In this document: positions 964-63,984 of the stretch, one piece after another
Layout of the letters: each line of letters opens with the position of its first letter
How positions within the stretch are numbered: position 1 is the first letter of the stretch
Origin: a virus
Taxonomy: Duplodnaviria; Caudoviricetes
DNA: 64,000 bases
Virus record (IMG/VR): IMGVR_UViG_3300049144_000095
Span: 1 to 64,000 of that record
Reading direction: 5' to 3' (one strand)
Notes under the pieces: model-generated
The model's database searches: none
Told to the model about the DNA's origin: nothing
What the model saw: only the letters and a program-made list of their open reading frames with translations
Made by a program: the position numbers and the translations under genes

Positions 964-992
964 TTGTGGCCTAGGCCGTATTGTGTCATGCT
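964..992 (+). promoter_or_regulatory. Putative promoter TTGTGG-N17-CATGCT overlapped by operator TGGCCTAGGCCG (967-978)
   Basis: Read directly; lies between the divergent GntR and membrane-protein genes. Confidence 0.55.
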
Positions 993-1168
993 GGAGTCCG
1001 CAACGCCAGCCACGAAGGAGCGTTGCGGAGAACGCAAGACACGAGTGAGAACCCTTGCGGCTCTCTGGGTGAGGACCAGCCTCCCTTGCAAACGGCCCAG
1101 GCCAGGATATCGCCCTGCCTGCGGAACGTGTCAGGAGGCATCCAGCCCACTCGGACGGAAGGAGAAAC

Positions 1169-2134
1169 GTGACAACGCCGGTGACGGTTCCACCGAAGCC
1201 GACTCGCGACCCCGACGTCCACCTGAAGGACCGTGGCGCCAGCAAGAAGCCGCGCACCCTGAAGGGTGACATCGAGAAGCTGAGAGGCAAGGCGTCGGAG
1301 GTTCGCAGCAAGTGGACCACCGGACGACAGGCAGCAGCCGGAAAGAAGAGGGAGGTCAGACGGAAGGCCGGGGACGTCCTGGCCCCCGCGAAGAAGAGGG
1401 TCAGCGAGGAGAGGCAGCTCGCCGACGAGACGGTGAAGTCGATCTACAAGGCCATCGGTTCGGTGCGTTCGGCACTCGATCCGGCCAAGGGGAAGGCTCG
1501 TCCGTACGTCACGTCCTTCCTGATCTCGTGCGTGATCTCGTGGGCCCTGGGGCCGCAGGTACTCGTAGCCATCTACGAACGACTCTGGTTCCACACGAGC
1601 ACGACGAGCTGGGGTGTGCTGCACGGACCGGGGCGCTGGTTCCGGGACACGGTGGGCATGGCTGCCGAGACGGGGCAGATGTTCGGCCTGATCGCCGCGA
1701 TCTGCCTGGGGGTGACACCCATGTTCCTGTTCAGCGTGAGGAACATGGTGGCGAAGTACCTCGCCGAGTCGCCGTACTACGGCAAGGCGGGCAGGTTCGC
1801 CATCAGGTGGCTTGCTCGGGCCCCTTACCTGGTTCCGACCGTCTACCTCATCGGCGTGGCCTACCCGCAGTACGTCACTCCGGTCTTCGGCAGCCCCTGG
1901 CGGCTGGAGATGTGGCACTTCTACGTGGCCGGACTCTTCTGCACTACGTACTACTTCACGATGTGGGTCTTCGATCGAATCGAACGGCTCCGCGTCGAAC
2001 GGCAGGCCATGTCTGCCGAGGAGCAAGCCAGTACCCAGACCATGGGGCCCGGCATGTTCCACGCACTCCTGATGGTCCCGCTGGCTTCGATCATCTCGGG
2101 TGCACTCCTCTACACCCCGAACGCTGCCTGGTAG
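1169..2134 (+). CDS. Multi-pass membrane protein with basic N-terminus (possibly spread/transfer-type)
   Basis: RBS AAGGAG; Lys/Arg-rich first 110 aa then several hydrophobic segments. Confidence 0.75.
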   Translation: MTTPVTVPPKPTRDPDVHLKDRGASKKPRTLKGDIEKLRGKASEVRSKWTTGRQAAAGKKREVRRKAGDVLAPAKKRVSEERQLADETVKSIYKAIGSVRSALDPAKGKARPYVTSFLISCVISWALGPQVLVAIYERLWFHTSTTSWGVLHGPGRWFRDTVGMAAETGQMFGLIAAICLGVTPMFLFSVRNMVAKYLAESPYYGKAGRFAIRWLARAPYLVPTVYLIGVAYPQYVTPVFGSPWRLEMWHFYVAGLFCTTYYFTMWVFDRIERLRVERQAMSAEEQASTQTMGPGMFHALLMVPLASIISGALLYTPNAAW

Positions 2135-2248
2135 TAGAGGGGCCTCCGTTGCGGAGCGAGTCGCTTGGATTGCAAACCAAGCGACGCCGGGTCAAACCGG
2201 CCGGAGGTACGAAGCGGTGAAAGGCGCCGCTGGAAAGGAGAAGAGGTC

Positions 2249-2311
2249 GTGAACTTCAAGGACGACGACCACAACGGAATGCCGGTGCGCGAGCCGCGCC
2301 CCGGTAACTGA
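2249..2311 (+). CDS. Possible 20-aa peptide MNFKDDDHNGMPVREPRPGN
   Basis: Strong GAAAGGAG RBS before GTG; too short for the ORF track. Confidence 0.3.
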   Translation: MNFKDDDHNGMPVREPRPGN

Positions 2312-2360
2312 CGAGGGGGCAGAACGCCAAGGGGCGTTCTCTTCGAGAAAGGGAGTAAAG

Positions 2361-2933
2361 GTGTTCCAGGCCATCGTGCAGCAGCAGCGGATCGAGGTTC
2401 CTGAGACCTCGTGGCTCGGCCACATGTCGATGGCGGGATTCGGTCTGGCCATCTTCATCGTCTCGGTCCTGTGCATCAACGGATCGAAGAAGACGCAGAA
2501 GCAGATGGGGCCCTGGGGTCCATTCTTCACGGTCGTCATGAACAAGACCGTGACGGAGCCGACCAAGCGCATCGCGATGAAGTGGGGAGGTGGAGATGAA
2601 GGGTTCGACTGGCGCTCACTGATGACATTCCTGATCGGAATGCTGGGCATGACGGCGATCCTCAGCTCCACCGGCGGCTTCGTCCTGACGCTGGCCGACT
2701 TCTTCCAGGGCCTGCTCATGAAGATGTCCGGCTGGCCGGTTCTCGCGGATCTCGGTGCAGGTGGCCTGTGCTTCATCCTGGTCATCCTGGCGATGCGGAA
2801 CCGGGGTGACGACAAGGCGGACCTCGGCTACGGCGCGGCGTGCGGGTTCATCTTCCCGCTGGGCGGCGGCACGTGGTCGGAGATCACCCTTCAGGTCGGG
2901 CACTGGATTCCGCAGATCATGCACATCGGCTGA
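2361..2933 (+). CDS. Membrane protein, about 4 TM segments
   Basis: RBS AAAGGGAG; alternating hydrophobic helices; terminator follows. Confidence 0.75.
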   Translation: MFQAIVQQQRIEVPETSWLGHMSMAGFGLAIFIVSVLCINGSKKTQKQMGPWGPFFTVVMNKTVTEPTKRIAMKWGGGDEGFDWRSLMTFLIGMLGMTAILSSTGGFVLTLADFFQGLLMKMSGWPVLADLGAGGLCFILVILAMRNRGDDKADLGYGAACGFIFPLGGGTWSEITLQVGHWIPQIMHIG

Positions 2934-2943
2934 ACCTCGCCAC

Positions 2944-2977
2944 AACGGCCCGGAACTCAATCGAGTTCCGGGCCGTT
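2944..2977 (+). terminator. Intrinsic terminator
   Basis: Perfect 15-bp stem AACGGCCCGGAACTC/GAGTTCCGGGCCGTT, T-rich tail shortly after. Confidence 0.8.
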
Positions 2978-2992
2978 CCGTGTTTTCTTGCA

Positions 2993-3022
2993 TTGCTAAA
3001 CGGCCTAGGCCAGTGTTAGTCT
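2993..3022 (+). promoter_or_regulatory. HrdB-type promoter TTGCTA-N18-TAGTCT with operator CGGCCTAGGCCA (3001-3012) in the spacer
   Basis: Read directly; upstream of SLT gene. Confidence 0.7.
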
Positions 3023-3049
3023 GGGGTTTCACTCGGAAAGGAGGATCGA

Positions 3050-3673
3050 ATGCGCAAGGTCGGAGGAATTTTCGTCGGCACGTTCCTACTGGTCGGCGCC
3101 GCCCAGGCGATCACCGGCTTCGTTCCAGCCGCTCCCTCAGCGGCGAACGAGCTTCCAGCGCAGAGGGTTGGCGATGCACAGGACGCGAAGTTCACCGGAA
3201 GCAGTGCGCCGATCCGTGCCGGATCCGTCCCGAACAAGCGGTGGGAAGAGCTGATCGACAAGTGGGGCAATAAGTGCAAAGCCCTCACTCCGGCAATTCT
3301 GGCCGCTCAGCTCCACCAGGAATCCATGGGATTCAACCCGCGCGTCGTCTCGGGTCAGAGGAATTCCCCGGTCGGTGCTCGTGGCATCGCACAGTTCATG
3401 CCTGGAACGTGGGCAGATCATGGGGTTGACGCGAACAAGGACGGTAAGCGCGACATCATCGACCCCGAGGACGCCATTCCCTCTGCCGCTGTCTACGACT
3501 GCAAGGTGGCCCGAAGCGTCCGCCACGTCTCCGGCAACGTCACGGACAACATGCTCGCCGGATACAACGCCGGATCGGGCGCAGTCCTGAAATACGGCGG
3601 CATACCGCCGTACAGCGAAACGCAGAACTACGTCAGGATCATCAAGAAGAAGGCGGGAAGGTTCGAGCGGTGA
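3050..3673 (+). CDS. Secreted lytic transglycosylase (SLT domain)
   Basis: ILAAQLHQES (catalytic Glu), GARGIAQFMPGTW, LAGYNAG, ETQNYV motifs; N-terminal signal peptide. Confidence 0.9.
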   Translation: MRKVGGIFVGTFLLVGAAQAITGFVPAAPSAANELPAQRVGDAQDAKFTGSSAPIRAGSVPNKRWEELIDKWGNKCKALTPAILAAQLHQESMGFNPRVVSGQRNSPVGARGIAQFMPGTWADHGVDANKDGKRDIIDPEDAIPSAAVYDCKVARSVRHVSGNVTDNMLAGYNAGSGAVLKYGGIPPYSETQNYVRIIKKKAGRFER

Positions 3674-4269
3674 GTCGCAGGCATCATGGCGCTCTGGCTA
3701 TTTCGGCAGTTGCTGCGTGCGCAGCCCTGTCCACCGGGTGCGGAGCGCTGCACGCTGCTCCGATAACCAACGCCAAGGCCAACGACAACCCGGCCATCGA
3801 GAAGGTCAACTGGTACTCGCCTGAGCAGCGGGCGAAGGAGGCCGCGCGACAAGAAAGCGATGCGCGCGTGGCCCCTCGCCTTCCAGGAGATGCGGCTGCC
3901 GTAGCCATTGCTTACGCTCGCACAAAGATCGGAGTTCCCTACCTCTGGGGCGGCACTGGAACGAAGGCGCAAGGAGGACGGTTCGACTGCTCCGGACTCA
4001 CCCAGGCGGCGTATGCGAAAGCAGGCATCAAGCTGCCGCGCGTAGCCAACGACCAGTGGAACGCGAGCGACAACCACCCTTCCTGGAATGACCTCAAGCC
4101 GGGCGATCTCGTCTTCTTCGGTCAGAAGGGAAACTCTCGCTCCATCCATCACGTGGGCATTTACATCGGCGACGGAAAGATGCTGCACGCCCCGCGTACC
4201 GGCACCTTCATTCGGATAAACGGAGTGCACTACATGTCCGACTATTTCGGGGCCACGCGAGTCGCCTAG
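3670..4269 (+). CDS. NlpC/P60 cell-wall peptidase, probable lipoprotein
   Basis: IGVPYLWGG, FDCSGL, PGDLVFF, HVGIYIGDGKMLHAP; N-terminal ALSTGC lipobox-like; GTGA overlap with SLT. Confidence 0.92.
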   Translation: MSRRHHGALAISAVAACAALSTGCGALHAAPITNAKANDNPAIEKVNWYSPEQRAKEAARQESDARVAPRLPGDAAAVAIAYARTKIGVPYLWGGTGTKAQGGRFDCSGLTQAAYAKAGIKLPRVANDQWNASDNHPSWNDLKPGDLVFFGQKGNSRSIHHVGIYIGDGKMLHAPRTGTFIRINGVHYMSDYFGATRVA

Positions 4270-4314
4270 CCGATCAAACAGTCACTGAACCAACGGATCG
4301 AAACGGAACACTTC

Positions 4315-5160
4315 ATGCGTATCGAAATCCGCAACACGTACGGCACCCCGCACACCTGCGGGACCAGCCCGGCCCACGTCACGGGTTGCGACCGCTACCG
4401 GTTACCTCTGGTCGGCATCATCACCCCCGACAATCCAGCCTACGAAGACATGGTGCAATGGCTGAAGGATGACGGCAACGATACCCGTCCTGAAGGCTAC
4501 GGACTGATCTTCCTGGAGTCCGAGGAGTTTTCTGCCACCTACTTCGGATCGATCGCCCAGATCGAGCAGTACCAGCGTGAAAACGTAGACGGAACTGCAA
4601 CCTTCGACGCCTCGCAGGGTGTCATGTATGCCCAGTGGCCCCACGGGAAAGGTTGGGACGACTACATCCCTCGCGTCTTTTGGAACACCCAAGCGCGCGG
4701 CGCCATTGCCGACGGCGTCGGTCTTGTCACCGCTTTCGCACACACCGAAGTCCAGGGCGCGGACATCATCGTCTACGAGTTCGAAGGTGCATGGACTTAC
4801 GGCGGCGAGACGGAGCGAATGGTCACATACCACTGCACCGCCTGCCATAAGGACACCTTCCACGACTCCGGCCACGTCCACGAGAACACCGGCCCCAGCA
4901 GTCGCCGCTGGGCTGCCCGTCAGGCACGCGAGCACATCATCAGCGCCGCCCGGCACGGCGTCGGCGACACCAACAGCGCCTGCCGCCCCGACAACGGCGA
5001 AATGCTGCGTGTCGTGAACGCCGTGGCGCGAGACAAGCTGGGCACCACAAGCAACGTGCTTCCGGATACCGACGACGCGTACTGCGCCACCAAGGGTCCC
5101 TGCTCGATCCTTCGCAAACTCCGCGCCGGAATTCGTCCGCCTGTCTACCGTCAGATCTGA
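4315..5160 (+). CDS. Hypothetical protein with CxxC-H motif; contains a TTA codon
   Basis: 281-aa ORF; YHCTACH; TTA at 4402-4404. Confidence 0.65.
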   Translation: MRIEIRNTYGTPHTCGTSPAHVTGCDRYRLPLVGIITPDNPAYEDMVQWLKDDGNDTRPEGYGLIFLESEEFSATYFGSIAQIEQYQRENVDGTATFDASQGVMYAQWPHGKGWDDYIPRVFWNTQARGAIADGVGLVTAFAHTEVQGADIIVYEFEGAWTYGGETERMVTYHCTACHKDTFHDSGHVHENTGPSSRRWAARQAREHIISAARHGVGDTNSACRPDNGEMLRVVNAVARDKLGTTSNVLPDTDDAYCATKGPCSILRKLRAGIRPPVYRQI

Positions 5161-5183
5161 GGATCAGGAAAGGGGTGTCATTC

Positions 5184-5525
5184 ATGGAAAGCCTCAGGGA
5201 ACGCCGAGGTGTCCTCGACTTCGAAGTTGAGGTGATGAAGCCACTCAGCAAGAAGCGGCTGATACGCATGGCTCTCCAGTGGGACGACATGCTACGCCTC
5301 CCCCTGTCAGGCGACATCGTCACCGTGGGCCGCTGCGGGCTCAAGGTGGTTCACGGTCCGGCTTCAGACGAGATGCTGTTGAACAGTCCGACAGTGGCCG
5401 TCGACCCCTACTTCGCACCCCCGTACTGGTACGCGAGGTACGACGAAGTGTGGACGAGCGCCGAAGGGCTGGCCGCAGCGTTCGCCGGGGACCCCCGGCA
5501 CCTCTCCGTCGAGGTGCTGGTGTGA
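5184..5525 (+). CDS. Hypothetical protein
   Basis: RBS GGAAAGGGG; stop overlaps next start. Confidence 0.6.
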   Translation: MESLRERRGVLDFEVEVMKPLSKKRLIRMALQWDDMLRLPLSGDIVTVGRCGLKVVHGPASDEMLLNSPTVAVDPYFAPPYWYARYDEVWTSAEGLAAAFAGDPRHLSVEVLV

Positions 5526-6241
5526 AGGGGTCGGTGCACGCGGCCATCGGCGCCTCGGCGCCCGTCACCCTCGTCGCCACGCAGCACGTCTCACTGGTGC
5601 AGGGCGCGGTCATGGCCGCCGTGTCGGCCGGATATGCCCTCCTGCCGGATATCGACCACCCGCTGTCCTGTGCATCGACAGCGCTCGGTAGGGTCACCCA
5701 CAAGGCCGTCCGCAGTCTCTGCAAGGCGACGGTACGCGCGACTTCCACGCACAGGGACTTGGGATACCGGCAGCACATGCGGGTGCGCTACCCCTCGAAG
5801 GACTTCTATCACCGCACCCTCACCCACACCCTGGCCGCAGCTCTCGGGATCGGGGTGACCGTCTACGTGACGAGCTGGATGAGCATGGCGGCGTCTGGTC
5901 TCGTGGCGGCCCTGGGCGTCTACTTGCTCTGGCCCTTGAGGAAGGTCACAAAGGGAGTGGTGATCCTGGGTGCGATGGCCGCAGCCGCCGGATCCGCCCT
6001 CACCTTGACGCCGTGGCTGATCACGCTCGCCGTCACATGCGGGTACATCAGCCACGTGGCGGCCGACGCCTGCACCAAGTCGGGCGTGCCAGCACTCTGG
6101 CCCCTCCCGGTCAAGGGGAAGCGCTGGTGGAACATCCGGATCCTGGACAGCATGGTGACCTCCGGGTCGGCTCTGGAGAAGGGCCCGGCGGTGGGGGTCT
6201 CGGTGTTCGCGAACATCGCGCTGATGTTCCTGAAGTTCTGA
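5522..6241 (+). CDS. Membrane metal-dependent hydrolase (YdjM/DUF457-like)
   Basis: GSVHA...LLPDIDHP...HRTLTHT...GYISHVAADACTKSGVPALWP motif series. Confidence 0.85.
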   Translation: MKGSVHAAIGASAPVTLVATQHVSLVQGAVMAAVSAGYALLPDIDHPLSCASTALGRVTHKAVRSLCKATVRATSTHRDLGYRQHMRVRYPSKDFYHRTLTHTLAAALGIGVTVYVTSWMSMAASGLVAALGVYLLWPLRKVTKGVVILGAMAAAAGSALTLTPWLITLAVTCGYISHVAADACTKSGVPALWPLPVKGKRWWNIRILDSMVTSGSALEKGPAVGVSVFANIALMFLKF

Positions 6242-6243
6242 CG

Positions 6244-6269
6244 AAACCCCGGCCTCGGCCGGGGTTTTT
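6244..6269 (+). terminator. Intrinsic terminator
   Basis: AAACCCCGGCC/GGCCGGGGTTT stem ending in T-run. Confidence 0.8.
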
Positions 6270-6341
6270 GGCTCTTTGCGCACAACCCCTTCATGCCGCA
6301 CAATCGAAGGCGGAAGTGGAGGGAAAGGTGATGCGATAACC

Positions 6342-6755
6342 GTGACGGATGGTCTCTACGAGAGGGATGAGGTCTGGGGTTCGACTGCCCGTCGCACCCT
6401 CCGTTTCGCGCACCCTGACGCGCACGCATCGGTCAGCCCGGAGACCGGCGCTGACCTCGGCCGGGCCTCGGTGGAGGCGAACAGGACAGACGCCTTCGGT
6501 CCCGAAGCGGTGGTGCGTGCCCGCGCGATGGACTACGAGCTGACGACGCGCATCCAGCAGGAGTCGCCCTACGCCCAGGAGACCGTGGTCGAGCACCGTG
6601 TGCACGATTACCGGCTCTACGTCGGAATGTGGGTCGTCGCGGGGCTCAGCGGCGTCTCAGCGTTCCTCACGTACTCCCTGTGGCATCTGCTGATCACTGT
6701 GGTCGCGGTGGCCTTCGCCCTGATGTCGTCACCGGGGCGGCAGTACGCGGACTGA
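6342..6755 (+). CDS. Membrane protein, 2 C-terminal TM segments
   Basis: Hydrophobic LYVGMWVVAGLSGVSAFL and LLITVVAVAFALM; start uncertain. Confidence 0.6.
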   Translation: MTDGLYERDEVWGSTARRTLRFAHPDAHASVSPETGADLGRASVEANRTDAFGPEAVVRARAMDYELTTRIQQESPYAQETVVEHRVHDYRLYVGMWVVAGLSGVSAFLTYSLWHLLITVVAVAFALMSSPGRQYAD

Positions 6756-6781
6756 CCCGGCGCCCACTCGAACCAACCTCT

Positions 6782-6832
6782 TGGCACCCATTGTGGAATG
6801 GGTGCCATTCTGCTTAGAATTGGCCTAGGCCG
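6782..6832 (+). promoter_or_regulatory. Promoter TTGTGG-N18-TAGAAT with 11-bp inverted repeat over -35 and operator TGGCCTAGGCCG (6821-6832) right after -10
   Basis: TGGCACCCATT-gtgg-AATGGGTGCCA (6782-6807); TAGAAT 6815-6820. Confidence 0.75.
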
Positions 6833-6852
6833 TTTTTGAGGAGGAGGTGGCC

Positions 6853-7272
6853 ATGGCTGGACGACCCAGGCAGGACGGTGCAGAGGTCCGTAACCGGCAG
6901 TTGTCGGTCCGGTGGACCAGTACCGAGTACGACCTCATCAAGGTAGCCAAGGAGCAGAACGGCATCCGCTACCTGGTGGACGTCCCGCGCATCATGACCC
7001 TGCGGCAGATCGAGCTGGAGAAGGTCATCGGCAAGAGTGCCGACAACCTGGAGAAGGTCCGGCGCGTCGCGGAACTCGCCTCGGCAGATGAGGTGCTGAG
7101 CCTGACCCTGAAGCAGATCAAACTTCAGGACGCCATCGGGGACGGCATGAAAGACGTCGAATCCGTACGACGAACTCTCGGGCTGGAGACAGTGGAAGAC
7201 ACGCTCTGGGCTCTCGCGAAAGCTCAGATCGAACAGATGCGTTCCGCGCTCGAAAGGGACGTGGCAGAGTAG
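6853..7272 (+). CDS. Ribbon-helix-helix (MobC/CopG-like) DNA-binding protein with coiled coil
   Basis: RNRQLSVRWTSTEYDLIKVAKEQNG fits an RHH strand-helix; RBS GAGGAGG. Confidence 0.65.
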   Translation: MAGRPRQDGAEVRNRQLSVRWTSTEYDLIKVAKEQNGIRYLVDVPRIMTLRQIELEKVIGKSADNLEKVRRVAELASADEVLSLTLKQIKLQDAIGDGMKDVESVRRTLGLETVEDTLWALAKAQIEQMRSALERDVAE

Positions 7273-7277
7273 TCACC

Positions 7278-7460
7278 ATGAGCGCAAATCCCAACGACCC
7301 TCTGCTCACCGTCCCTGAAGCCGCCCGGCGCATGCGCGTAAGGGAGAGGCAGGTGCGAAAGATCCTCGCCCGCAATCTCGTTCAGGGCGTCCGGACGCAC
7401 CTCGGGATCTGCTACAGGCAGGACGACGTGGACGCGGTCGCATCGATAAAACGCCGATGA
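7278..7460 (+). CDS. Excisionase/MerR-like HTH protein
   Basis: LLTVPEAARRMRVRERQVRKIL...YRQDDVDA. Confidence 0.75.
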   Translation: MSANPNDPLLTVPEAARRMRVRERQVRKILARNLVQGVRTHLGICYRQDDVDAVASIKRR

Positions 7461-7627: not shown

Positions 7628-7645
7628 GACCGGAAAGGAGAGGAC

Positions 7646-8278: not shown

Positions 8279-8285
8279 CGGCTGG

Positions 8286-8326
8286 TTGCGATAGAATCGC
8301 AGGATAGCGCGAACGACAGGTATCTT
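8286..8326 (+). promoter_or_regulatory. Palindrome TGCGA-N5-TCGCA overlapping promoter TCGCAG-N18-TATCTT
   Basis: Same architecture recurs at 20179-20218. Confidence 0.5.
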
Positions 8327-8354
8327 TGAGTGATCCATTCACGAGGAGGAACCT

Positions 8355-21771: not shown

Positions 21772-22610
21772 CAGCAGAAGACGGTGAAAACATTCGCACT
21801 TTCGTCGGCGGTCTCGCAGTCGCGGCCATCATGCAGCCCTCTGCGCGCGACAAGCAGGCGGCGCCAGGCCCCAGCGACCTGGCCGACAAGTGCGATGTCT
21901 GCGTAGCCCGGAAGATCGCGGCCTATCTGGGTCTCGGCGACCGGGGCGCGCGGGGCTTCAGCCTCAAGGCGTGGATCGGTACCGCCGTGCACGAGAAGCT
22001 GGAGCGGGACCTCAGGCACATCTACCCGCACGGAGAGCAGGAGATCGAGGTCATCATCGGAGAGGTCCCCGGCCTCGGCCTCGTCAAGGGGCACGTCGAC
22101 CTCTATCTGCCCCGCAAGCTGAGCATCGTAGATTGGAAGACTACAGACCTGAAGAAGCTGAAGGGCTACCGCCTGGCGTCAGGTCCGGGTGCCTACACCA
22201 GCAACCTGACGGCCCAGGAGCGCGACGAGCTGAAGGATCTGAAGGAGCGCGAAGGAGTCGGCCTGCTCACGGAGGCTGAGTTCGGGCGGCTGACGCTGCT
22301 CATGGCCCAGTCCGAGGAGCATTCCGGCGGTGTTCCTGCGGAGTACCTGGGACAGACCATGTTGTACCTGTACGGTCTGCGCGCTTCGGACCGCCGAGCG
22401 GATCACGCGGTCCTCGTGTTCATCCCACGTGACTCCAATGATGTCGCGGACATCTGGGTGGCTTCCTGCCGGTACCGCCCGGAGATCGCTGAGGGTGTCC
22501 TGCGCCGCGCAGCACACCTGACGGCCGTCGTGCGCAGCGGAGGCCTTGCCGGTCTGAAGCCCCACGCCCAGTGCTTCCCGTGCTCGATCCAGCCGAAGCT
22601 CCGTCGTTGA
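21768..22610 (+). CDS. Cas4/RecB-like PD-(D/E)XK exonuclease
   Basis: PSDLADKC..C, IGTAVHEKLE, GHVDL...IVDWKT, QTMLY, C-terminal CFPC. Confidence 0.85.
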   Translation: MTAEDGENIRTFVGGLAVAAIMQPSARDKQAAPGPSDLADKCDVCVARKIAAYLGLGDRGARGFSLKAWIGTAVHEKLERDLRHIYPHGEQEIEVIIGEVPGLGLVKGHVDLYLPRKLSIVDWKTTDLKKLKGYRLASGPGAYTSNLTAQERDELKDLKEREGVGLLTEAEFGRLTLLMAQSEEHSGGVPAEYLGQTMLYLYGLRASDRRADHAVLVFIPRDSNDVADIWVASCRYRPEIAEGVLRRAAHLTAVVRSGGLAGLKPHAQCFPCSIQPKLRR

Positions 22611-22634: not shown

Positions 22635-22648
22635 GTGGCCTAGGCTAC
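22635..22648. promoter_or_regulatory. Operator-like GTGGCCTAGGCTAC upstream of RecT
   Basis: Near-perfect copy of the TGGCCTAGGCC palindrome; GG-TAGGCT -10 at 22664-22669. Confidence 0.55.
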
Positions 22649-22759: not shown

Positions 22760-23938
22760 ATGGGAACCACTGAACTTGCCCAACGCACCCCCCGCCCGGT
22801 GAGTCCGGCTGAAGCAGTCCGCCTCTCGAAGTCGAAGCTCCTTCCGGAGCACATCGCCGACGACCCGGCGAGCGTCGAGTACATGATGCGGATCGGCGAG
22901 TCCCTGGGGATCGACCCTGTCGCCTCCTTCCAGCACATCTTCGTCTTCCCGGACAAGAACGGCCGCCTCAAGGCCGGGATGTCGGCCCACCTGATGGTCG
23001 CCCTGGCCCAGGCGGCAGGCCACGTCGTCCACGTCGAAGGCAACGCACTGAAGGCGACGGCCCGGCTGATCCGGAACACGTCCCTGGAGGACATCCACCG
23101 CTTCAACGCCATGGCGGAGATCGAGCGCCAGCAGAAGCGCAATCTCCTGGCCAACACGGAGAGCGTTTACAGGTCCCAGCGGGACCTGATTCGCGACCAG
23201 ATCGATGACCTGAAAGCCCTCGCGGAACTGGGCGGCGAAGGTCTCCAGGAAGAAATCAAGAATCTTCAGCGGCAACTCCTCGAACTGCGGAAGCAGTACA
23301 ACTTCCAGGAGCTGCGCGACAAGATCACGGAGACCGAGTTCGACCTCGCCAAGATGGTCCACTTCAAGTCCGAGTGGACGAAGGCCAGGGCCGACCAGGC
23401 GGGTCTCACCGGCAAGTCCGTCTGGCAGAGCTTCGGCCCGGAGATGCTGAAGGCCCGAGCCAAGGCCAGCGTGGTCCGTGACGGCGCGATCGACGTCATC
23501 CTCGGCATCAAGCGCATCCTGAGCGACATGGGGCTGGAGTTCACCGACGAGGTGGACGACGAACTCGCGGTGGCCGGGGTGATCTACCCACCTGAAGAGC
23601 TGGGCGCCGAGGTCGACGAGGACGGAGTTCCCATCAAGGGCCGCGTCGTCAACGTGACGGCACCCGGGGTCAGCAAGGAGCAGGATCGCCTCGTGGCCGC
23701 CGGACGAAAGCTGATCGACGGCAAGAGCGCCGACGAGATCAGTAAGGCCATCGAGCAGTCGCTGCGCAACCCCAAGGTCGACAAGGACACCAAGATCTCC
23801 CGACTCGACGCCGTCCTCAAGGCGGTCAACGAGGCGGGCCGGGGCAAGGAGGAGGTTTCGCAGGACGACGGAAGCTGCGAACTCTCCGCCTACCTCGAAC
23901 GCATGATCCAGGAGCTGAACAGTCCCGTACAGCCCTGA
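22760..23938 (+). CDS. recT: RecT/Red-beta-like ssDNA annealing protein
   Basis: LLPEHI..DPASVEYMMRIGESLGIDPVASFQHIFV...MSAHLMVAL and W..FGPEMLKARA..VRDGAIDVILG; follows exonuclease. Confidence 0.75.
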   Translation: MGTTELAQRTPRPVSPAEAVRLSKSKLLPEHIADDPASVEYMMRIGESLGIDPVASFQHIFVFPDKNGRLKAGMSAHLMVALAQAAGHVVHVEGNALKATARLIRNTSLEDIHRFNAMAEIERQQKRNLLANTESVYRSQRDLIRDQIDDLKALAELGGEGLQEEIKNLQRQLLELRKQYNFQELRDKITETEFDLAKMVHFKSEWTKARADQAGLTGKSVWQSFGPEMLKARAKASVVRDGAIDVILGIKRILSDMGLEFTDEVDDELAVAGVIYPPEELGAEVDEDGVPIKGRVVNVTAPGVSKEQDRLVAAGRKLIDGKSADEISKAIEQSLRNPKVDKDTKISRLDAVLKAVNEAGRGKEEVSQDDGSCELSAYLERMIQELNSPVQP

Positions 23939-56943: not shown

Positions 56944-58025
56944 CAGTAGGTCCCTCCCGACAGGAGGTCGCGGATCTCGTTGAGGTCGCTGTCGGACGCG
57001 GACGAGCTGCTGTAGGACGCCGACGCCGACTCGGTGAGGCCGAGGTTCGAGGACTGGTGCTCCAGGCCGGACCGCTCGGTCTCGCGCAGGAGCTTCTTCA
57101 GGTACTCGCGCTCGTGGTTGATCGACTCGTGCAGGTCCTGGTCCGGACGGTAGGACTGCGCGAGGCGGATCATCGAGGGAAGGGGGAGCTTCGCCTCAAG
57201 CAGCTCGGTGAGAACGTCACCGGTGCTCTTCGACTCCTTGAGCGCCTTGTCGGCGGCCTCGGCGCGGTCACGCAGGTACGTGATCGCCTCGGCGAGCTTC
57301 TGGTTCTCGCGAGCCTGCTTCGCGGACTCGCTCTGCGCCTCCCGGAGCGCCTGCGCCATGCGGGCCACGTCGACCGAAACCTGGTCGAGGTTTTCCTTGA
57401 CGCTCTCCTTGAGGGCGGCGACCTCGTTGCGCAGGTCACCCGACCCCAGGGTAGAGGGAATCGTGGTGGGGGCAGATCCCGCGCTGGGGACTGCTGCGGT
57501 CTGCTCTACCGGAGGGGACTCCGGCGCGGCCGACTCGGTCATAGTGACGAGCCTTCCTCCCGCTCCAGCGCGGGTGACGAGGTCAACGGAAAGGCCCTCG
57601 GAGATCTGGCGGACTATTCGCCCCGAGGGAGTCTCTTCGATCTGGCCAGCAGCTCGGATCGAGAGCCCGATGACTTTGTTGAGTTCCTGTACCAGGGACT
57701 TGGCGTTCTCGGTGAACTGGACGCGCGAGAAAAGACCTCGCCCGTCCTTTCCGTCCTCGAACGTAGCGTCGTCGAGCAGGTAGCCAGCCAGGTCCCGGAC
57801 ACTGCGCTCCGGACGCTCTTCCTCTTCGGTCTCCGTGGGGTGATCGAAGTAGATGTGCGTTCCGGCGGGAAAGGCCGTGGCCCCGTCACGGATCAGGACA
57901 TCAGCCGGGTAGTAACCGCTGCTGCCCTGGATGTCAGCTTCGATGAGGCATACGCGCCAGATACCTTTGCCGGACGACGGGTCCGGCGTAAGGGTTGCGG
58001 ATTCCCGCAGCGTCTCCTGGTTCAT
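56943..58025 (-). CDS. Capsid maturation protease + scaffold
   Basis: IYFDHP, GLSIRA, SVDLVTRAGAGG; coiled-coil C-terminal half. Confidence 0.85.
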   Translation of the reverse strand: MNQETLRESATLTPDPSSGKGIWRVCLIEADIQGSSGYYPADVLIRDGATAFPAGTHIYFDHPTETEEEERPERSVRDLAGYLLDDATFEDGKDGRGLFSRVQFTENAKSLVQELNKVIGLSIRAAGQIEETPSGRIVRQISEGLSVDLVTRAGAGGRLVTMTESAAPESPPVEQTAAVPSAGSAPTTIPSTLGSGDLRNEVAALKESVKENLDQVSVDVARMAQALREAQSESAKQARENQKLAEAITYLRDRAEAADKALKESKSTGDVLTELLEAKLPLPSMIRLAQSYRPDQDLHESINHEREYLKKLLRETERSGLEHQSSNLGLTESASASYSSSSASDSDLNEIRDLLSGGTY

Positions 58026-58097
58026 ACGCCCCCTCGCTGATCAACGACGAGGCACACACTAATAGCACTGGGGGGCAAATGTCCCAACCGAAGTGCA

Positions 58098-59828
58098 TTA
58101 ACTTCCTTCGTCTCGCAGTTCGTGGTCTGCGTAGGACATGGGGTCCGGCTGCTTCGGGGCCGCAGTTGCACGCGAGTTTCCCGCCTTGAGCGGGGATGGT
58201 GCACCGGGTCCACCCGTGCCAGCGGGAGGAGTATTCCTCGAATTACTGCCTGATTGATCGGAGTTTGGCTTCGAATCAACCTTGGGGATTCCCTGGCCTG
58301 TTCCTCCCGCCACATAGGGAAGCTGGTCGAGCGTCGGAGCCTTCCTGCCGAAATCCTTCCACTTGTCGTGGAAGGCGTCGAGGGCCATCGCCCTCGCCTC
58401 TTCCGCCGAGACGAGCCCCAGGCGGATCAACATGTCGAGAGCCTGCATGCGCCGGTGCACCGGCTCCTCGGAAATCTCCGGCCACCGCAGCCGGACCTTG
58501 AGACCCAGCACCTTGAAGATCTGACGGAACGTCTCGTCCATCACCTTCTGGCGGGACTGCATCACGAGAATCGTCGACTGGTCGAGCGACGTGGCGCCCG
58601 CATTGTTGGCGATCGACGGGTCCTCCAGAAGCGCAGGCAGGGGCACATCCAGAGCGGAGGCCACCATCGATGCCAGGGGTCGGCCCGATTCAAAGTCGAC
58701 CTTGGTGTTGCCGCCTACCGCCGACAGATCCTGCCCCGCTCCAAGGACTGCCGAGGCCCCCACGTTCAGAGGCTGCCCTGTCGCCGGATCCACGCGGGGG
58801 GCTTGCGCCATGGCGGCAGCCGTACGGCGGACCGACCGCGACTTGTCGGAGGTGACCTTCCAGGCGAAGCGTGCGTACGCCTTCGTCAGCGTCGCGCAGT
58901 TTTCCAGGAACTCCTTGTACGCCTTGGTCCACCAGACTGCCGGAAGCACGTCGGGGATGCCCCAGCGCCAGCCCGTCAGCCGGTTGAACGGAACGTGGAC
59001 CAGAACCTTCGAGTTGTCGACAGGGTCTCCCGCGATGGTCCCCGCCCCCCGGCCCCTGCCCATGGCCCTCAGTCCGGCGGGCGTCGGGTACCAGACGTCC
59101 CGGAATGAGAACTTGGCGGCCCCGCCCGAATCGCCTTCGCGGTCGGCGCGGATCCAGCTCCGGCCCCTGGCGACCGCTTTGGGTGCCGTGATGGGGTTCA
59201 GCTCGATGTCGGCGCCGAAGTCCAGTTCGAGATCCCAGTCGTTCCAGGTGCGGCGGATGTACATCAGGCGCTCCCTGTTGCCGCGCTGAGACACCCCTTC
59301 GGTTATCTCCTCGAAGGGGATTCGCTGCACCTCCTTGGATCGGCGGTCAACCAGAAAGAAGAGATTCCCGTCGGTTCCGGCGGTGCGTTCCAGTTCGAGC
59401 TGTGCCAGCGGACCTGTCAGAACTTCCGCGATTCCCTCGGGAAGTTCCGGCTCTACGTTCACAGTTCGTGGGCGGCCGGGCCCCTGGATGAATTCCTCGG
59501 GAACCACTGAAACGCCGGATCCCCAGATGTACCCGGTTCGTACTCGCAGGCCGCGACCCACGAGGGGATTGACGGTCGCCACGGCGCGGCACAGCTCGCT
59601 GGCGTTATGCAGAGCGTCCAGGGTGAAGGTGTTCGCCCCCTCGGTGGGGCCCATCAAAGGGCGCCACCCGATGTCTTCCAGGGCGAGTTGCACGCGGCCG
59701 AACTCGCCTGCCTCGCGCATCTCTTCCGTGACAAGTCCCGTAAGTTCCTCGTTGCGGGCTTCGAGATTCGCCACGAGCGTCTGGATTTCCGTCAGCGACA
59801 GCTCTTCGACGGGCCTCTTCATCTGCAT
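58098..59828 (-). CDS. Portal protein
   Basis: NPLVGRGL....IWG, DGNLFF, RWGIPDVLPAVWW; between TerL and protease; ends DEGS. Confidence 0.88.
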   Translation of the reverse strand: MQMKRPVEELSLTEIQTLVANLEARNEELTGLVTEEMREAGEFGRVQLALEDIGWRPLMGPTEGANTFTLDALHNASELCRAVATVNPLVGRGLRVRTGYIWGSGVSVVPEEFIQGPGRPRTVNVEPELPEGIAEVLTGPLAQLELERTAGTDGNLFFLVDRRSKEVQRIPFEEITEGVSQRGNRERLMYIRRTWNDWDLELDFGADIELNPITAPKAVARGRSWIRADREGDSGGAAKFSFRDVWYPTPAGLRAMGRGRGAGTIAGDPVDNSKVLVHVPFNRLTGWRWGIPDVLPAVWWTKAYKEFLENCATLTKAYARFAWKVTSDKSRSVRRTAAAMAQAPRVDPATGQPLNVGASAVLGAGQDLSAVGGNTKVDFESGRPLASMVASALDVPLPALLEDPSIANNAGATSLDQSTILVMQSRQKVMDETFRQIFKVLGLKVRLRWPEISEEPVHRRMQALDMLIRLGLVSAEEARAMALDAFHDKWKDFGRKAPTLDQLPYVAGGTGQGIPKVDSKPNSDQSGSNSRNTPPAGTGGPGAPSPLKAGNSRATAAPKQPDPMSYADHELRDEGS

Positions 59829-59879
59829 GAGATCACCTTAACGGTGTATTTGGCGCAGTGAAGAGACCCTTCTACGGGT

Positions 59880-60086
59880 TCATCGGGGCGGTTGCTCCTC
59901 TTTTTCTGTCAGCGGCATGGCGTCGTCGCACGAGTCGGCGAGCTTTTTGAGTGCCCCGTCCCGCAACGGAGAGGGCTTGGAGCGCATCAGATGCAGAGCC
60001 AGGTGTACGTAGAGGCGGCCCAGCTCTCCGCCGTCCTGGGCTCTGAGCCTGATGCGGCGGAGAGCCGCCTCGGACCTGTCGTACAC
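59880..60086 (-). CDS. Hypothetical protein (68 aa)
   Basis: RBS GAGGAGG before GTG. Confidence 0.5.
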   Translation of the reverse strand: MYDRSEAALRRIRLRAQDGGELGRLYVHLALHLMRSKPSPLRDGALKKLADSCDDAMPLTEKEEQPPR

Positions 60087-60096
60087 ACCGGCCTCC

Positions 60097-60537
60097 TCAG
60101 GGGGATCCGACCGCCATGAAGTAGGGCAGCCGGTAGAAGTAGCCGGGTGTGGCGAGGCGCATGGTGTTGTCGTTGTAGAGGTCGACGAAGCGCTGCATCT
60201 GGGCTTCACTCAGGTGCTGGTAGTAGAATTTGGCGCGGCCGTTCCTGATGGGCGGCAACGGTTCCCCTGGGCGGGCAGTCTGTTCAGGCAGGTCGAGAAC
60301 TTCGTGCAGGTATGCCTTGTAGTCCTTGTCGGTCGGTTCGACGGCCCAGCCTTCCGATATCAGCGCCAGGAACGTCTCGGGGTGGAGTGACCCGCAGAAC
60401 GAACAGCAGGGGCCCGGATCTGATCCGTGCGCCTCTCCGGTGTTCCGGTCGGCGTCGCGCCAGGTGTCCAGGTTCTCCGAGTGCTCCCAGGGGCCCGCTT
60501 CCTGCATGCGTCGCGGGCAGGTCTGTGTATCCGGCAT
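60097..60537 (-). CDS. Hypothetical protein
   Basis: RBS GGAGG; CSFCGSLHP, KFYYQHL. Confidence 0.65.
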   Translation of the reverse strand: MPDTQTCPRRMQEAGPWEHSENLDTWRDADRNTGEAHGSDPGPCCSFCGSLHPETFLALISEGWAVEPTDKDYKAYLHEVLDLPEQTARPGEPLPPIRNGRAKFYYQHLSEAQMQRFVDLYNDNTMRLATPGYFYRLPYFMAVGSP

Positions 60538-60576
60538 GGCTTTCCTCCTTGGGTTCTGCGGCGCGTTGGGCGTGGA

Positions 60577-62946
60577 TCAGTAGGGCGCGATCATGGTCTC
60601 CGGATCCGTCATCCACTCGTCGTCGCTGTACATGCTGGCCATTTCGTCAGCCGTCTCACTGACGACGTCGCCCTGCTGGAGTCCTTCGGCGACCGGGGCT
60701 GTTGCGTACGCCACGGCGTCGGCGAGGTCGGGTGAACGTCCGTACTCGGACCGCATCGCCTCCTTTGAGGCGATCAGCAGGCGGCCGTTCTTGATCGAAT
60801 AGAAGATCATGCGCAGGTCGTCCGAGACCAGCTCGTCAGGGTCGATGATCTTGGCGGAACCGTTGTACATCTTCTGCCGAAGCTGGTCGAACCAGAAGGC
60901 TCGCGCGTTGTAGAAGCCGTACACGGAACCACCGACATTGGGGGGCGGGGCGGCCGATCCGTGCATCTCGTACACCGTGTACCAGGGCTCGGGAAGCAAC
61001 GCTGCGCGGGCGTTGAGAGTGTCGATGACACCGGCACCCAGGCCGACGCCGTCGACCCGGATCTCCACCCACGGAGCGTGCAGTTCGGCCTTCAGGCGTT
61101 CCGCGATCTCCAGAACCTTGTATGCAGAGGAAACGGTGTCGGTCCCCGACCACGAATCTTCGACTCGAACTGTTACGCCCGAGTAGGAAACGACCACCGT
61201 CTTGTCGGACCCGAACCGTGCAACGTCCACGCCCAGGCGCAGGATCGAGTACTTGGACGGGGCCGGAGGTTCGTCAATTGCATCGGCAATGAGCGACGGA
61301 GAGAAGAGGGAGGACTGGCTCTGCTCGGGGAAGCGGGCTTCGATCTTCGAGATGTAGCGAGGGTCCTTCTCGCCCCAGTCCGCAAGGCGCTCCTCGGCCC
61401 AGTCCTTGGAGATGAGCACTTCATTCAGGAGCTTCGGCACCGGCTCGTTGGTGAAGTTCGGCGTGGTCGATGCCGGAATCGAAATCCTGTTCCATAGGTG
61501 GGCGGTTCGAGGCTCCAGGAAGTTCTTGCCGAACTCGGTGTTGCGATCGTCCGGGTTTCCGATGGCCAGGATCCGGCATCCGACGTTCGTAGTGATGGCC
61601 TCGACGCCGGTCCAGATCTCCTCCGGGATGCCGCAGGCCTCATCGAGCAGGACCAGGACGTAGCGACGGTGGATGCCGTGGAAGCTGTGCCGGTCACCCT
61701 TGGCGGGCTTGCGGCCGAAGCCCACAATCTGACCGTCTGCCAGCTTCCACTCATCGGCCTGTGTCACACGCCCCGGCATGGGGTGCGGACCGCGCTGCGA
61801 GTTGGAGTGGTGCTTGCGGATCTCCTCCCAGAGAATCTTGTTCACCTGGGCGTATGTCGGTGCGGTGCTGACCACGATGGCCTGGCCGGGGGGTTTGGTG
61901 GACACCCACCAGCAGGCGAGCACGGAAGCGATCATCGAGTTGTGGGTCGGTACACCCCGCTCTCCGCACAGGTACAGGTGGTCCTCCGCGTCCACCTGGA
62001 TGCACTGAACATCGTGCTCACCGACCGGAGTTACGGAAACGATTCTCCAGCCGTCATCCCCCCAGCTCCCCTGCTGGCTGAGCAGACGCGAGAATGCCAG
62101 GGCCCTGGTGTTCGGATCCGACAGGTGCTGCGGAGCGTGAGTGCCCATCAGGGCGAGGTGGCGCAGGACCGTGCCGTACTGCCGCTCCCGCCGGTAGATG
62201 GTGTGCACGCCGATCGCGTTCATCCGCTGCCGGATCGCGGATATCTCGTCCGGCTCTTCGCTGCGGGTTTTCCACAGCAGAGCTGTGCGCCCTTCCGGAT
62301 CGAGACCGATGCGCTCCCGCAGCAGGGTCTGCGTCTCGGGGTCGGGATTCCAGGCTGTGCCGCGAGGTTCGAGGTGGGGGATCGCGCCCGGGATCACGGC
62401 GACGCCGCGCATCTGGGCGAGTTCCCGTGTCGACATGATGCGGGCGCGGTGATGCCACAAGCCGGTTTCGACCGGCACCCCCGCACGGTCGGACCGGATC
62501 TGTATGTCGGCGAGAACCTGGAGTGGAATGACCGGCCACAAGTGATCACCGGACGCGACGATCTTTTCGACCGCGCCGCCCCTCTCCAGGCGCAGCAGGT
62601 ACGCGTCTGCCTTGTGCTCCCCCGTAGTTGCCACGACTGTCACAGGGCTTCCGTCGGACCCGAGTACCTGCATCCCGGCTTTGACGTCACCCATTCGCAC
62701 AGGACCATTCGGTGTGTGTACGAGTTCATTCAGGCCAAGTGCTTTGCCCGTGCCGTGACATGACGCAACGACAGTTCTCTTGTTTCGTATAAGAGACGCA
62801 CAAATTTCCTGCTGCTTGCTCCACAGGTGCACGCCGAGAACATCCCGGGCCCAACCGGTGGGATCATTGACCCATCCGGCCTGTCGGGCCTGGTTGCGAA
62901 AGTAGGCCTCGGCGTCCGAGGCGATCCGCTCGTCCTGTGAGGACAT
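60577..62946 (-). CDS. terL: Terminase large subunit with intein
   Basis: VASCHGTGK|S Walker A, LLDEACGI Walker B, IGNP, LGVDVARFGSD and SPDLADA nuclease motifs. Confidence 0.95.
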   Translation of the reverse strand: MSSQDERIASDAEAYFRNQARQAGWVNDPTGWARDVLGVHLWSKQQEICASLIRNKRTVVASCHGTGKALGLNELVHTPNGPVRMGDVKAGMQVLGSDGSPVTVVATTGEHKADAYLLRLERGGAVEKIVASGDHLWPVIPLQVLADIQIRSDRAGVPVETGLWHHRARIMSTRELAQMRGVAVIPGAIPHLEPRGTAWNPDPETQTLLRERIGLDPEGRTALLWKTRSEEPDEISAIRQRMNAIGVHTIYRRERQYGTVLRHLALMGTHAPQHLSDPNTRALAFSRLLSQQGSWGDDGWRIVSVTPVGEHDVQCIQVDAEDHLYLCGERGVPTHNSMIASVLACWWVSTKPPGQAIVVSTAPTYAQVNKILWEEIRKHHSNSQRGPHPMPGRVTQADEWKLADGQIVGFGRKPAKGDRHSFHGIHRRYVLVLLDEACGIPEEIWTGVEAITTNVGCRILAIGNPDDRNTEFGKNFLEPRTAHLWNRISIPASTTPNFTNEPVPKLLNEVLISKDWAEERLADWGEKDPRYISKIEARFPEQSQSSLFSPSLIADAIDEPPAPSKYSILRLGVDVARFGSDKTVVVSYSGVTVRVEDSWSGTDTVSSAYKVLEIAERLKAELHAPWVEIRVDGVGLGAGVIDTLNARAALLPEPWYTVYEMHGSAAPPPNVGGSVYGFYNARAFWFDQLRQKMYNGSAKIIDPDELVSDDLRMIFYSIKNGRLLIASKEAMRSEYGRSPDLADAVAYATAPVAEGLQQGDVVSETADEMASMYSDDEWMTDPETMIAPY
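61939..62742 (-). mobile_element. Class-3 intein (268 aa) in the TerL P-loop
   Basis: Starts Ala (ALGLNE); DHLW, VQCIQV, PTHN followed by Ser. Confidence 0.9.
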
Positions 62947-63376
62947 TGTGATCCTTTCTCATATGCCGCAAATATCATTCCTCACGGAGTGACGGATCCG
63001 GTAACCTCTTCGCGCCCCGACCTGTCAGCACAGGGCAGACAGGACTCCACTTCCAGGGGGCTGAGGATGCGCCAGGGGGCCCGGCGGCAGGTACGCTCGG
63101 GCCCTTCCTCATGCAACGAACGAGCGGGCAGTGACTCAGAGTTGCGCGTCAAGTACGCCAAACGCGTCATCCTGCCTACCTCGATCGAGCCAACGTAAGA
63201 GGTTCGTCTCCGAACTCTCACCGTCCTGAGGTAGGAAGGAGCGCGAGTCAGTGCAAGCATGAGCCGGGAGGGGTATGGCTGAGGCGGCCGGTTTACGACC
63301 AAAGCGGCAGGTTCAGCGAACTCCCTGACTACGATCCGACTTTCCTTTCCAGACACTCTGTGCCACCCTTAAAAAC

Positions 63377-63763
63377 ATGAAGAACAGGTACCCGAAACTG
63401 TGCAGCATCTGCCAGGGTCTTGTTCCAGCCGGTGAGGGAATCCTGTACCAGGACAGCTCCGGCTGGAGCGTGACCCACTCCGGTGCATGCCCGCGAGGAG
63501 ATCAGGACAACGGCTCTATCCGTCACGGACACGCGAAGGCGTACGCGCGCCGAGTGCTCAGCCTGACGCGCCGCTCTGATGTCAGCGTGGCTGAGATCGA
63601 AGAAGCCGTTCGCCACCTGGCTGCCCTTGTGCGCACGGGCTGGACCACCATCGAAGCGTGCGAGCGCATCCTGCTGAACTCCAAGGCCATGGAGGGTCTG
63701 GACCGGCTCTCAGTTGAGGGCATCATGAGCCAGCTCTCCACCGAGGAGTCTCACGTCGGCTGA
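63377..63763 (+). CDS. Hypothetical protein (N-terminal Zn ribbon)
   Basis: NRYPKLCSICQGLVPAGEG...H..C. Confidence 0.6.
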   Translation: MKNRYPKLCSICQGLVPAGEGILYQDSSGWSVTHSGACPRGDQDNGSIRHGHAKAYARRVLSLTRRSDVSVAEIEEAVRHLAALVRTGWTTIEACERILLNSKAMEGLDRLSVEGIMSQLSTEESHVG

Positions 63764-63940
63764 CGACGGAAGACCCAGCATGTCGAGCATTTCAAGGAGG
63801 GCCCCCCTGGGGTCCTCCTCTTTCATTGCGTAGGACGCCATGTTCAGCATCGCCACGCGATGACAAGCGACGCACTGCCCGCAGGGTATGGGCATGCACT
63901 GGCGCGGAATCGTCACGCTTGAGACCGGGGTGATGTCCAC
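63710..63940 (-). CDS. Hypothetical small protein
   Basis: C....CGQCVAC; C-terminal ALLEMLDMLGL. Confidence 0.45.
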   Translation of the reverse strand: MDITPVSSVTIPRQCMPIPCGQCVACHRVAMLNMASYAMKEEDPRGALLEMLDMLGLPSSADVRLLGGELAHDALN

Positions 63941-63972
63941 TGTTTCAGCCCTTCCGGTAGTGGGGTTGCGAA

Positions 63973-63984
63973 TGGCCTAGGTCA
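63973..63984. promoter_or_regulatory. Operator-like TGGCCTAGGTCA
   Basis: Fifth, intergenic copy of the palindrome, one mismatch. Confidence 0.5.

Follow-up and report, generated by a model that had tools for sequence, protein, structure and literature searches.

A repeated palindrome as the probable operator of a HutC-type regulator encoded by a Streptomyces jumbo phage

The stretch of DNA analysed here (the window, 64,000 nucleotides) corresponds to bases 1-64000 of the virus record IMGVR_UViG_3300049144_000095 (Caudoviricetes), which has 251,159 bp and 65% G+C, and it carries the palindrome YGGCCTAGGCCR, with GGCCTAGGCC as its exact core and TGGCCTAGGCC as its 11-mer form. We propose, with a probability of roughly 75%, that this palindrome is the operator of a phage-encoded regulator of the HutC type, GntR#1, which would act as an autoregulated repressor. 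What we computed directly comprises the statistics of the motif, its overlap with promoters, the family and the conserved DNA-reading residues of the protein, and the joint conservation of motif and gene. The phage is kin, as patches with ~75% identity at the nucleotide level and an orthologue of GntR#1 that is 66% identical indicate, to the cluster BM Streptomyces phages Satis, JustBecause, Kela, Kradal, Quantum, EhyElimayoE and Frankenweenie (PMC6687918, PMC10652959).

A previous inspection of the window (hereafter the sequence-only reading) had listed five copies of the palindrome, all of them between genes. Their intergenic position holds, and three of them are exact matches of TGGCCTAGGCC, at 967-977 (+), 3002-3012 (- strand) and 6821-6831 (+), where 100 dinucleotide-preserving shuffles gave an expectation of 0.00; the other two, at 22637-22646 (GGCCTAGGCT) and 63974-63983 (GGCCTAGGTC), are one-mismatch variants of the same family. 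The motif had also been described as genome-wide, and a scan of the whole element bears this out: the 251 kb contain 18 exact copies of GGCCTAGGCC, against 0 for the reversed control, together with 13 near-exact ones, which are 12 copies of GGCCTAGGTC/GACCTAGGCC, all at gene boundaries, and one of GGCCTAGGCT, for a family total of 31. Far from being scattered at random in coding DNA, 30 of the 31 sites fall outside the GC3-based gene calls, in a genome where non-coding DNA makes up 23% (P ~3e-18), and the single remaining site overlaps a stop codon, 39 nt upstream of the next gene. Moreover, these sites hold 31 of the 106 CTAG tetranucleotides of the genome.

Among the 62 half-sites, position -5 is G in 61, position -4 shows 50 G and 12 A, and the symmetry extends past the core, with T or C (Y) at position -6 in 61. 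Variation is tolerated at one position, -4 (G to A), at intergenic sites. Variants of the centre (GGCCTCGGCC, GGCCGAGGCC and GGCCTGGGCC) were excluded from the family because they occur mostly in coding DNA or in terminator stems, and they look like chance matches. Intergenic copies of GGCCTGGGCC/GGCCCAGGCC were also seen in the whole record (G000) at positions 199556, 203906 and 219513, right after -10-like hexamers (TACTACAT, GTCCAT and AAGTAGT); these copies with a changed centre may be weak operators and stand outside the count of 31. A further one-mismatch match, within ccccGGCCTCGGCCgggg at window positions 6245-6266, is followed by a T-rich stretch 3' of a YdjM-like gene, and was discarded as an unrelated hairpin of the terminator type.

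The 9.5-Mb assembly of Streptomyces cucumeris NEAU-Y11 offers a comparison between a host chromosome and a phage of this kind. It holds 23 exact sites, 15 of them on a BM-like scaffold of 185,382 bp and 8 in the other 9.3 Mb, versus 235 occurrences of the reversed control pattern, so that the host avoids the motif whereas the phage is enriched in it about 90-fold. We found no description of GGCCTAGGCC in the literature in a phage or Streptomyces context.

The regulator gene, its putative promoter and the five sites of the window are as follows.

210..944, minus strand: GntR#1, the proposed repressor, a regulator of 244 amino acids (aa) of the HutC subfamily with a GntR winged helix-turn-helix and a UTRA domain
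967..978: site O1, TGGCCTAGGCCG, 22 nt upstream of the start codon of GntR#1
980..988, minus strand: putative extended -10 of the GntR#1 promoter, TGACACAAT, ending 2 nt before the core
3001..3012: site O2, CGGCCTAGGCCA, in the 18-nt spacer between a -35 TTGCTA (2993-2998) and a -10 TAGTCT (3017-3022)
6821..6832: site O3, TGGCCTAGGCCG, 1 nt after a -10 TAGAAT (6815-6820), with the ATG (6853) following 21 nt downstream
22636..22647: site O4, the variant TGGCCTAGGCTA with one core mismatch, between an exonuclease gene (ending at 22610) and a RecT-like gene, with TAGGCT 17 nt downstream
63973..63984: site O5, the variant TGGCCTAGGTCA, at the point where the head of the virion module (31-64 kb, minus strand) diverges from a gene of 136 aa on the plus strand, which starts at 64032, outside the window

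GntR#1 has an N-terminal GntR winged helix (Pfam PF00392, E 1.1e-8, 35.1 bits for a cut-off of 27) and a C-terminal UTRA domain (Pfam PF07702, E 1e-16, 61.4 bits for a cut-off of 23.8), which together place it in the HutC subfamily. Its sequence matches in the PDB are to the HutC members 2RA5, DasR, YydK and NagR, the best being 2RA5 and DasR (E ~1e-10), and with the Pfam domains these matches settle the fold. A perfect palindrome and a UTRA domain imply that GntR#1 would act as a homodimer, released from DNA by a small-molecule effector.

How such proteins read DNA is known from the structures of NagR-DNA complexes, where G-5 and G-4 of GTGG-T-C-T|A are recognised by Arg38 and Arg48, respectively, and positions -3 to -1 have backbone contacts only (PMC4333415). 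The equivalent residues of DasR are Arg48 and Arg58, and both guanines are conserved in its dre sites (PMC4918961, PMC13191281). In GntR#1 this pair corresponds to R34 and R44 (ARR...TSR), and it is kept in GntR#1 and 69 of the 70 phage-clade homologues, matching the guanines at -5 and -4 of the phage motif. Where DasR has Arg62, GntR#1 has Asp48, an aspartate that is invariant across the phage clade and a candidate cause of the changed operator specificity. When compared with the HutC operator consensus, Ny-GT-M-TA-K-AC-Ny (PMC4494728), GGCCTAGGCC matches in the C-TA-G centre and in the 4-nt spacing, with GC/GC replacing GT/AC.

The motif and the gene are conserved together. We compared 12 orthologous GntR promoters, from this phage, Kela, Satis, Frankenweenie, the S. 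cucumeris scaffold and seven metagenomic or isolate contigs (44-60% protein identity). An exact GGCCTAGGCC stands ~20-45 nt before the start of the orthologous GntR gene in 11 of these 12 phages, at protein identities of 44-100% and within flanking DNA that has diverged; the orthologue on the S. cucumeris scaffold (scaffold14, L034) is 64% identical. In two of the contigs, L015 and L016, the copy at the GntR promoter is the sole one in 20 kb, which points to the autoregulatory site as the most deeply conserved. The curated annotation of Kela gives the same picture, with 6 of 6 exact sites and one variant in intergenic positions upstream of co-oriented genes, among them those for GntR, an SLT protein (labelled 'glycosyltransferase'), a DprA-like protein and a helix-turn-helix (HTH) protein. 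As a separate observation, contig L016 carries at 3448-6129 a UvrD-type helicase gene with an intein that bears a LAGLIDADG endonuclease domain.

The exception among the 12 is P0067, encoded on L013, a 272-kb contig of Streptomyces sp. 5-10, which alone among the 70 phage-clade homologues has Leu at the Arg38 equivalent. Its promoter contains GCCTAGGCAA twice, and each of the four half-sites retains G-4 but lacks G-5 (TTGCCTAGGCAA being the form of the L013-type site). On the same contig (10862-16615) the GntR orthologue is followed by two KAS III genes, a short-chain dehydrogenase, an acyl-CoA oxidase and an acyltransferase, a gene set of fatty-acid/polyketide type that is an unusual cargo beside the regulator. 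One clade further out, the GntR proteins of small Streptomyces plasmids and of the phage-plasmid ZL12 (37-42% identity) have no Arg48 equivalent, and the palindrome in front of their genes is a different one, GCGCTAGTACTAGCGC or close to it.

These data bear on the possibility that the motif is the operator of a different protein, either another DNA-binder of the phage or an exploited host regulator such as DasR or another HutC member, with the GntR gene as merely one of its targets. In its favour, the core is that of dre (TGGTCTAGACCA) except at two symmetric positions, as had been stated in the sequence-only reading, with the GG steps read by DasR and NagR; the two symmetric mismatches, C/G for T/A at +/-3, are present in every copy, and the motif keeps the GG-N6-CC spacing. 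Some copies are dre-like in their flanks too, as is ACTGGCCTAGGCCACG, with 3 mismatches to the 16-mer, and the phage encodes several further HTH proteins. However, the motif tracks the GntR#1 clade, at the gene's own promoter and in two contigs nowhere else in 20 kb, and it shifts where the Arg38 equivalent shifts. Moreover, with A(G/C)TGGTCTAGACCA(G/C)T as the dre consensus, canonical dre (GGTCTAGACC) has 0 occurrences in the phage genome, where the best 16-mer matches have 3 mismatches and include copies of the phage motif; and at ~1 site per Mb of Streptomyces genome outside the phage scaffold, the motif is not a common host regulatory site. We therefore consider a different binder unlikely.

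A second HutC-type regulator of 244 aa, GntR#2, had been named along with GntR#1 for binding assays, and as the binder it can be set aside: it has neither of the guanine-reading arginines, it is missing from the syntenic position in Kela, and it has an inverted repeat of its own. Its gene converges on that of GntR#1, to which the protein is 28% identical, and runs across the record ends, from G000 250377-251111 into window 1-108 (+). Window positions 1-156 repeat G000 251004-251159 (99.4% identity over 156 bp), so the assembly is circular, circularly permuted or terminally redundant; discounting the overlap, the true genome length is ~251,003 bp. The inverted repeat in front of GntR#2, GTGAGCTAGTA-N15-TACTAGCTCAC (G000 250319-250355), is unique, and its half-site GCTAGTA resembles the GCGCTAGTACTAGCGC palindrome found before the Kor-type GntR genes of the plasmids and ZL12.

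The sites coincide with likely promoters. The overlap proposed in the sequence-only reading for the first three is plausible, with the core at 968 after TGACACAAT, at 3002 within TTGCTA-N18-TAGTCT, and at 6822 after TAGAAT. O1 follows TGACACAAT on the minus strand and at the same time lies inside the -35/spacer region of the divergent plus-strand promoter; the layout with the extended -10 is kept in 5 orthologous promoters, and a 33-bp block at O1 is kept in Kela, Satis and Frankenweenie. The layout of O2, upstream of an SLT gene, is shared with these three phages and with contigs L012 and L014, and this phage and five relatives present the pattern TTGnnn-N3-core-N5-TANNNT, in which the operator occupies the whole 18-nt spacer. 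Genome-wide, a strict TANNNT ends 0-2 nt before the core at 12 sites, versus 0.46 +/- 0.67 at random intergenic positions, and often shares its last T with the flank of the palindrome (TACGAT, TATCGT, TACAAT, TAGACT, TAAACT, TAGAAT). A TANNNT either abuts the core or starts 2-17 nt after it at 25 of the 31 sites, versus 2.66 +/- 1.56 (maximum 8) in controls. Many of these hexamers are of the TAGnnT type, which matches the -10 of the Streptomyces housekeeping sigma factor (sigma-HrdB), and 28 of the 31 sites lie no more than 130 nt upstream of a co-oriented start codon, most with a Shine-Dalgarno match. The operator-bearing promoters at G000 217583 and 246132 have a common layout, TTGAC(A/G)-core-N6/9-AAGAGT, which suggests that a single type of promoter was duplicated.

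Such an arrangement could also suggest that the motif belongs to the promoter proper, as the discriminator or start-site element that one class of promoters has in common and that is read by RNA polymerase or by a phage-modified polymerase. The 12 cores that abut a -10 and share its last T would agree with this, having a fixed register over the discriminator and +1, with a G+C-rich discriminator. Nevertheless, the register relative to the -10 is variable: at 17 sites the -10 is located 2-17 nt downstream, and the core sits either in the spacer, the conserved SLT promoter being an example, or on the -35, which is the case at 93102, 224701 and 22637. In addition, there is no reason for a directional promoter element to be a perfect palindrome with symmetric Y/R flanks, and profiles Sigma70_r2 and Sigma70_r4 detected no sigma-70-family gene in the phage. 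A perfect palindrome in variable register over core promoter elements resembles a repressor operator and not a promoter element, and the latter is in our view quite improbable. A role at the DNA level outside transcription, as a restriction-modification or nuclease site (the motif contains CCTAGG and GGCC) or in recombination, replication or packaging, is hardly credible, for although CTAG palindromes are typical restriction targets and this one is avoided in the host, a restriction target should be depleted in the phage, where the motif is instead enriched, its sites are restricted to gene starts and promoters, that of the regulator included, and variation is tolerated intergenically at -4 (G to A), while centre variants are mostly coding and chance-like.

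Several points weigh against GntR#1 as the repressor acting on these sites. Since some 300 genes of the phage lack a known function, another DNA-binding protein is possible as the binder. The covariation of Arg38 with G-5 comes from a single natural variant with two sites, and the GC of the motif departs from the GT of the HutC consensus (PMC4494728). All the promoters in this analysis are consensus matches, and 6 of the 31 sites have no strict -10 nearby. Finally, the cluster BM phages have been reported to be without a repressor and unlikely to be temperate (PMC10652959), which makes a role for a global repressor in them less obvious.

With these reservations, we infer binding, repression, a ligand, and a role in either lytic timing or a carried state, along the following lines. 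A GntR#1 dimer would bind the palindrome, and in each half-site the GG step at -5/-4 would be read by the two conserved arginines of one winged-helix domain. The operators would cover core promoters of the sigma-HrdB type, over the start site immediately 3' of the -10, within the spacer that separates -35 from -10, or over the -35 itself, and, as they sit on core promoters, the bound protein would sterically bar the host RNA polymerase from ~30 of them. The repressed set would comprise its own promoter, the divergent gene, a cluster with SLT and membrane proteins, the RecT/replication operon and numerous small genes that have no known function. The presence of the UTRA domain suggests that repression would be relieved by a small ligand of this domain. 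The predicted targets within the window are these.

1169..2134, plus strand: gene of unknown function (321 aa), divergent from GntR#1 and syntenic in all relatives
3050..3673, plus strand: lytic transglycosylase with an SLT domain (Pfam SLT, 4.7e-12), heading the cluster downstream of O2
5450-6241, in the SLT cluster: YdjM-like membrane protein (Pfam YdjM, 1.5e-18)
6853..7272, plus strand: gene of 139 aa downstream of O3, with no Pfam or PHROG match
22760..23938, plus strand: gene for a RecT-like protein that anneals single-stranded DNA, downstream of O4 (weak match, PHROG 4171 at 3.7e-8)

The 321-aa gene is likely to be the second target of O1. The regulon suggested in the sequence-only reading stands in part, since the copies at the GntR promoter itself and at the SLT gene are conserved in relatives; it is nonetheless far larger than was supposed and made up mostly of small genes of unknown function. 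RecT remains among the targets with its PHROG match, which is weak, and neither Pfam nor PHROG bears out the label 'RHH-Xis' given to 6853-7272. Beyond the window we tested 20 first downstream genes, of which one, for an ATP-grasp protein of the Ter-operon type, has a significant Pfam match and 19 have none. Promoters of the host type in front of small, functionally uncharacterised genes are a typical feature of early phage genes. No copy of the motif lies inside the stretch from 22.6 to 64.0 kb, which holds replication genes and the virion module; this stretch includes the RecT-like, primase and DNA polymerase genes at 23-31 kb and, on the minus strand at 31-64 kb, those for terminase, portal, capsid/protease and tape measure.

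Regarding the role of GntR#1 in the phage cycle, we give roughly equal weight to two possibilities, a timing switch for early promoters in lytic growth and a silencer of a carried state. It is also conceivable, if doubtful, that a metabolite-sensing master repressor ties ~30 host-type promoters, and with them most of the non-structural programme, to the physiology of the mycelium, so that the phage would persist as a silent episome and be switched on by a metabolite. This last scenario would concern 'lytic' jumbo phages of 185-270 kb, and it is compatible with genome-sized contigs from isolates, a tyrosine recombinase and a ParA-like gene.

These three features are observations in their own right. 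A tyrosine recombinase/integrase is encoded at G000 ~69069-70175 (-) (locus L009, 1420-2526; Pfam Phage_integrase, E 2.7e-23), although the cluster BM phages are reported to lack one. Near G000 236084-236245 there is a weak ParA-like (AAA_31) match, with no match to ParB_N. Assemblies of cultured Streptomyces isolates contain contigs of BM-like phages that are the size of whole genomes, namely L034 (185,382 bp), P0055 (252,977 bp) and L013 (272,101 bp), and they hint at carriage, as an episome, by pseudolysogeny or through contamination, of phages that have been called lytic.

There are precedents for HutC repressors with palindromic operators, for autoregulation, and for phage repressors whose operators are numerous and scattered. 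The novelty here lies in this particular repressor-operator pair, its scale of ~31 sites, and its spread through a poorly understood group of jumbo phages; we found no description in the literature of the pair, nor of a Streptomyces phage GntR linked to DasR. For the BM-like Streptomyces jumbo phages, in which ~90% of the genes have no known function, this would be a first testable regulatory map, consisting of one candidate repressor, one 12-bp operator and ~30 promoters that set the co-regulated genes. The pair would also illustrate a two-position change in a HutC operator alongside changes in the recognition helix, and a ligand, if found, would reveal the host signal that the phage senses. 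Furthermore, since the site is near absent from host genomes (~1 per Mb), the pair is a possible orthogonal switch for Streptomyces engineering.

Among phage repressors with multiple operators, C1 of P1 (dispersed operators), the c repressor of phiC31 (conserved inverted repeats) and gp71 of mycobacteriophage L5 (stoperators) resemble GntR#1 in that one repressor has tens of near-identical sites, its own promoter included, mostly on or beside promoters. They differ from it in belonging to other protein families and in having no ligand domain of the UTRA type, and the stoperators of L5 lack symmetry and work inside transcription units. A further difference is that the phages of cluster BM are reported as non-temperate (PMC10652959).

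DasR of Streptomyces and NagR of Bacillus share with GntR#1 the architecture of a GntR winged helix-turn-helix followed by UTRA, and dre and the phage operator are alike in the palindrome around a central CTAG, the GG-N6-CC spacing, the overlap with promoters and the mode of repression, which for the phage is proposed. GntR#1 is not, however, a DasR orthologue: the match to DasR (E ~1e-10) covers residues 3-150 only, and plasmid GntR proteins are closer (38-42%). In a HMMER alignment of modest confidence, R142 is the only residue kept out of the DasR pocket for glucosamine-6-phosphate (GlcN-6-P) and N-acetylglucosamine-6-phosphate (S97, Y98, T99, R142, R144, E154, Y177), the changes including S97 to N, Y98 to R, T99 to A, R144 to N and E154 to G. 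The targets differ as well, being phage genes for GntR#1 and N-acetylglucosamine (GlcNAc) or chitin genes for DasR. The link with DasR is one of formal likeness only, and the cross-talk with host DasR/GlcNAc signalling suggested in the sequence-only reading finds no support, given this distant likeness, the nearer plasmid kin, the mostly lost sugar-phosphate residues and a genome devoid of GGTCTAGACC.

The nearest relatives of GntR#1 outside phages are the Kor-type GntR proteins, found at 38-42% identity in 157 Streptomyces plasmid records. The Kor repressors (KorA of pIJ101, TraR of pSN22, KorSA of pSAM2, and SCO3932), from plasmids and actinomycete integrative and conjugative elements, are GntR/HutC proteins of mobile elements, autoregulated and divergent from membrane, transfer or spread genes. 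GntR#1 is Kor-like in its layout, with a divergent gene and an operator at its own promoter, and its plasmid homologues share the divergent layout. SpdB_N-like (plasmid 'spread') genes were also seen near the GntR gene in three phage loci, at L012 13635-14813, L015 10969-11982 and L031 2320-3297, which fits an origin of the module from plasmid Kor/Spd genes. The operators are not the same: the plasmid Kor clade, without the Arg48 equivalent, goes with palindromes of the GCGCTAGTACTAGCGC type and the phage clade with GGCCTAGGCC, and the footprinted motif of SCO3932 differs from that of the phage (PMC8584621). They differ in scale too, given that Kor proteins control few promoters whereas GntR#1 has ~31 sites over the 251-kb genome of a tailed phage.

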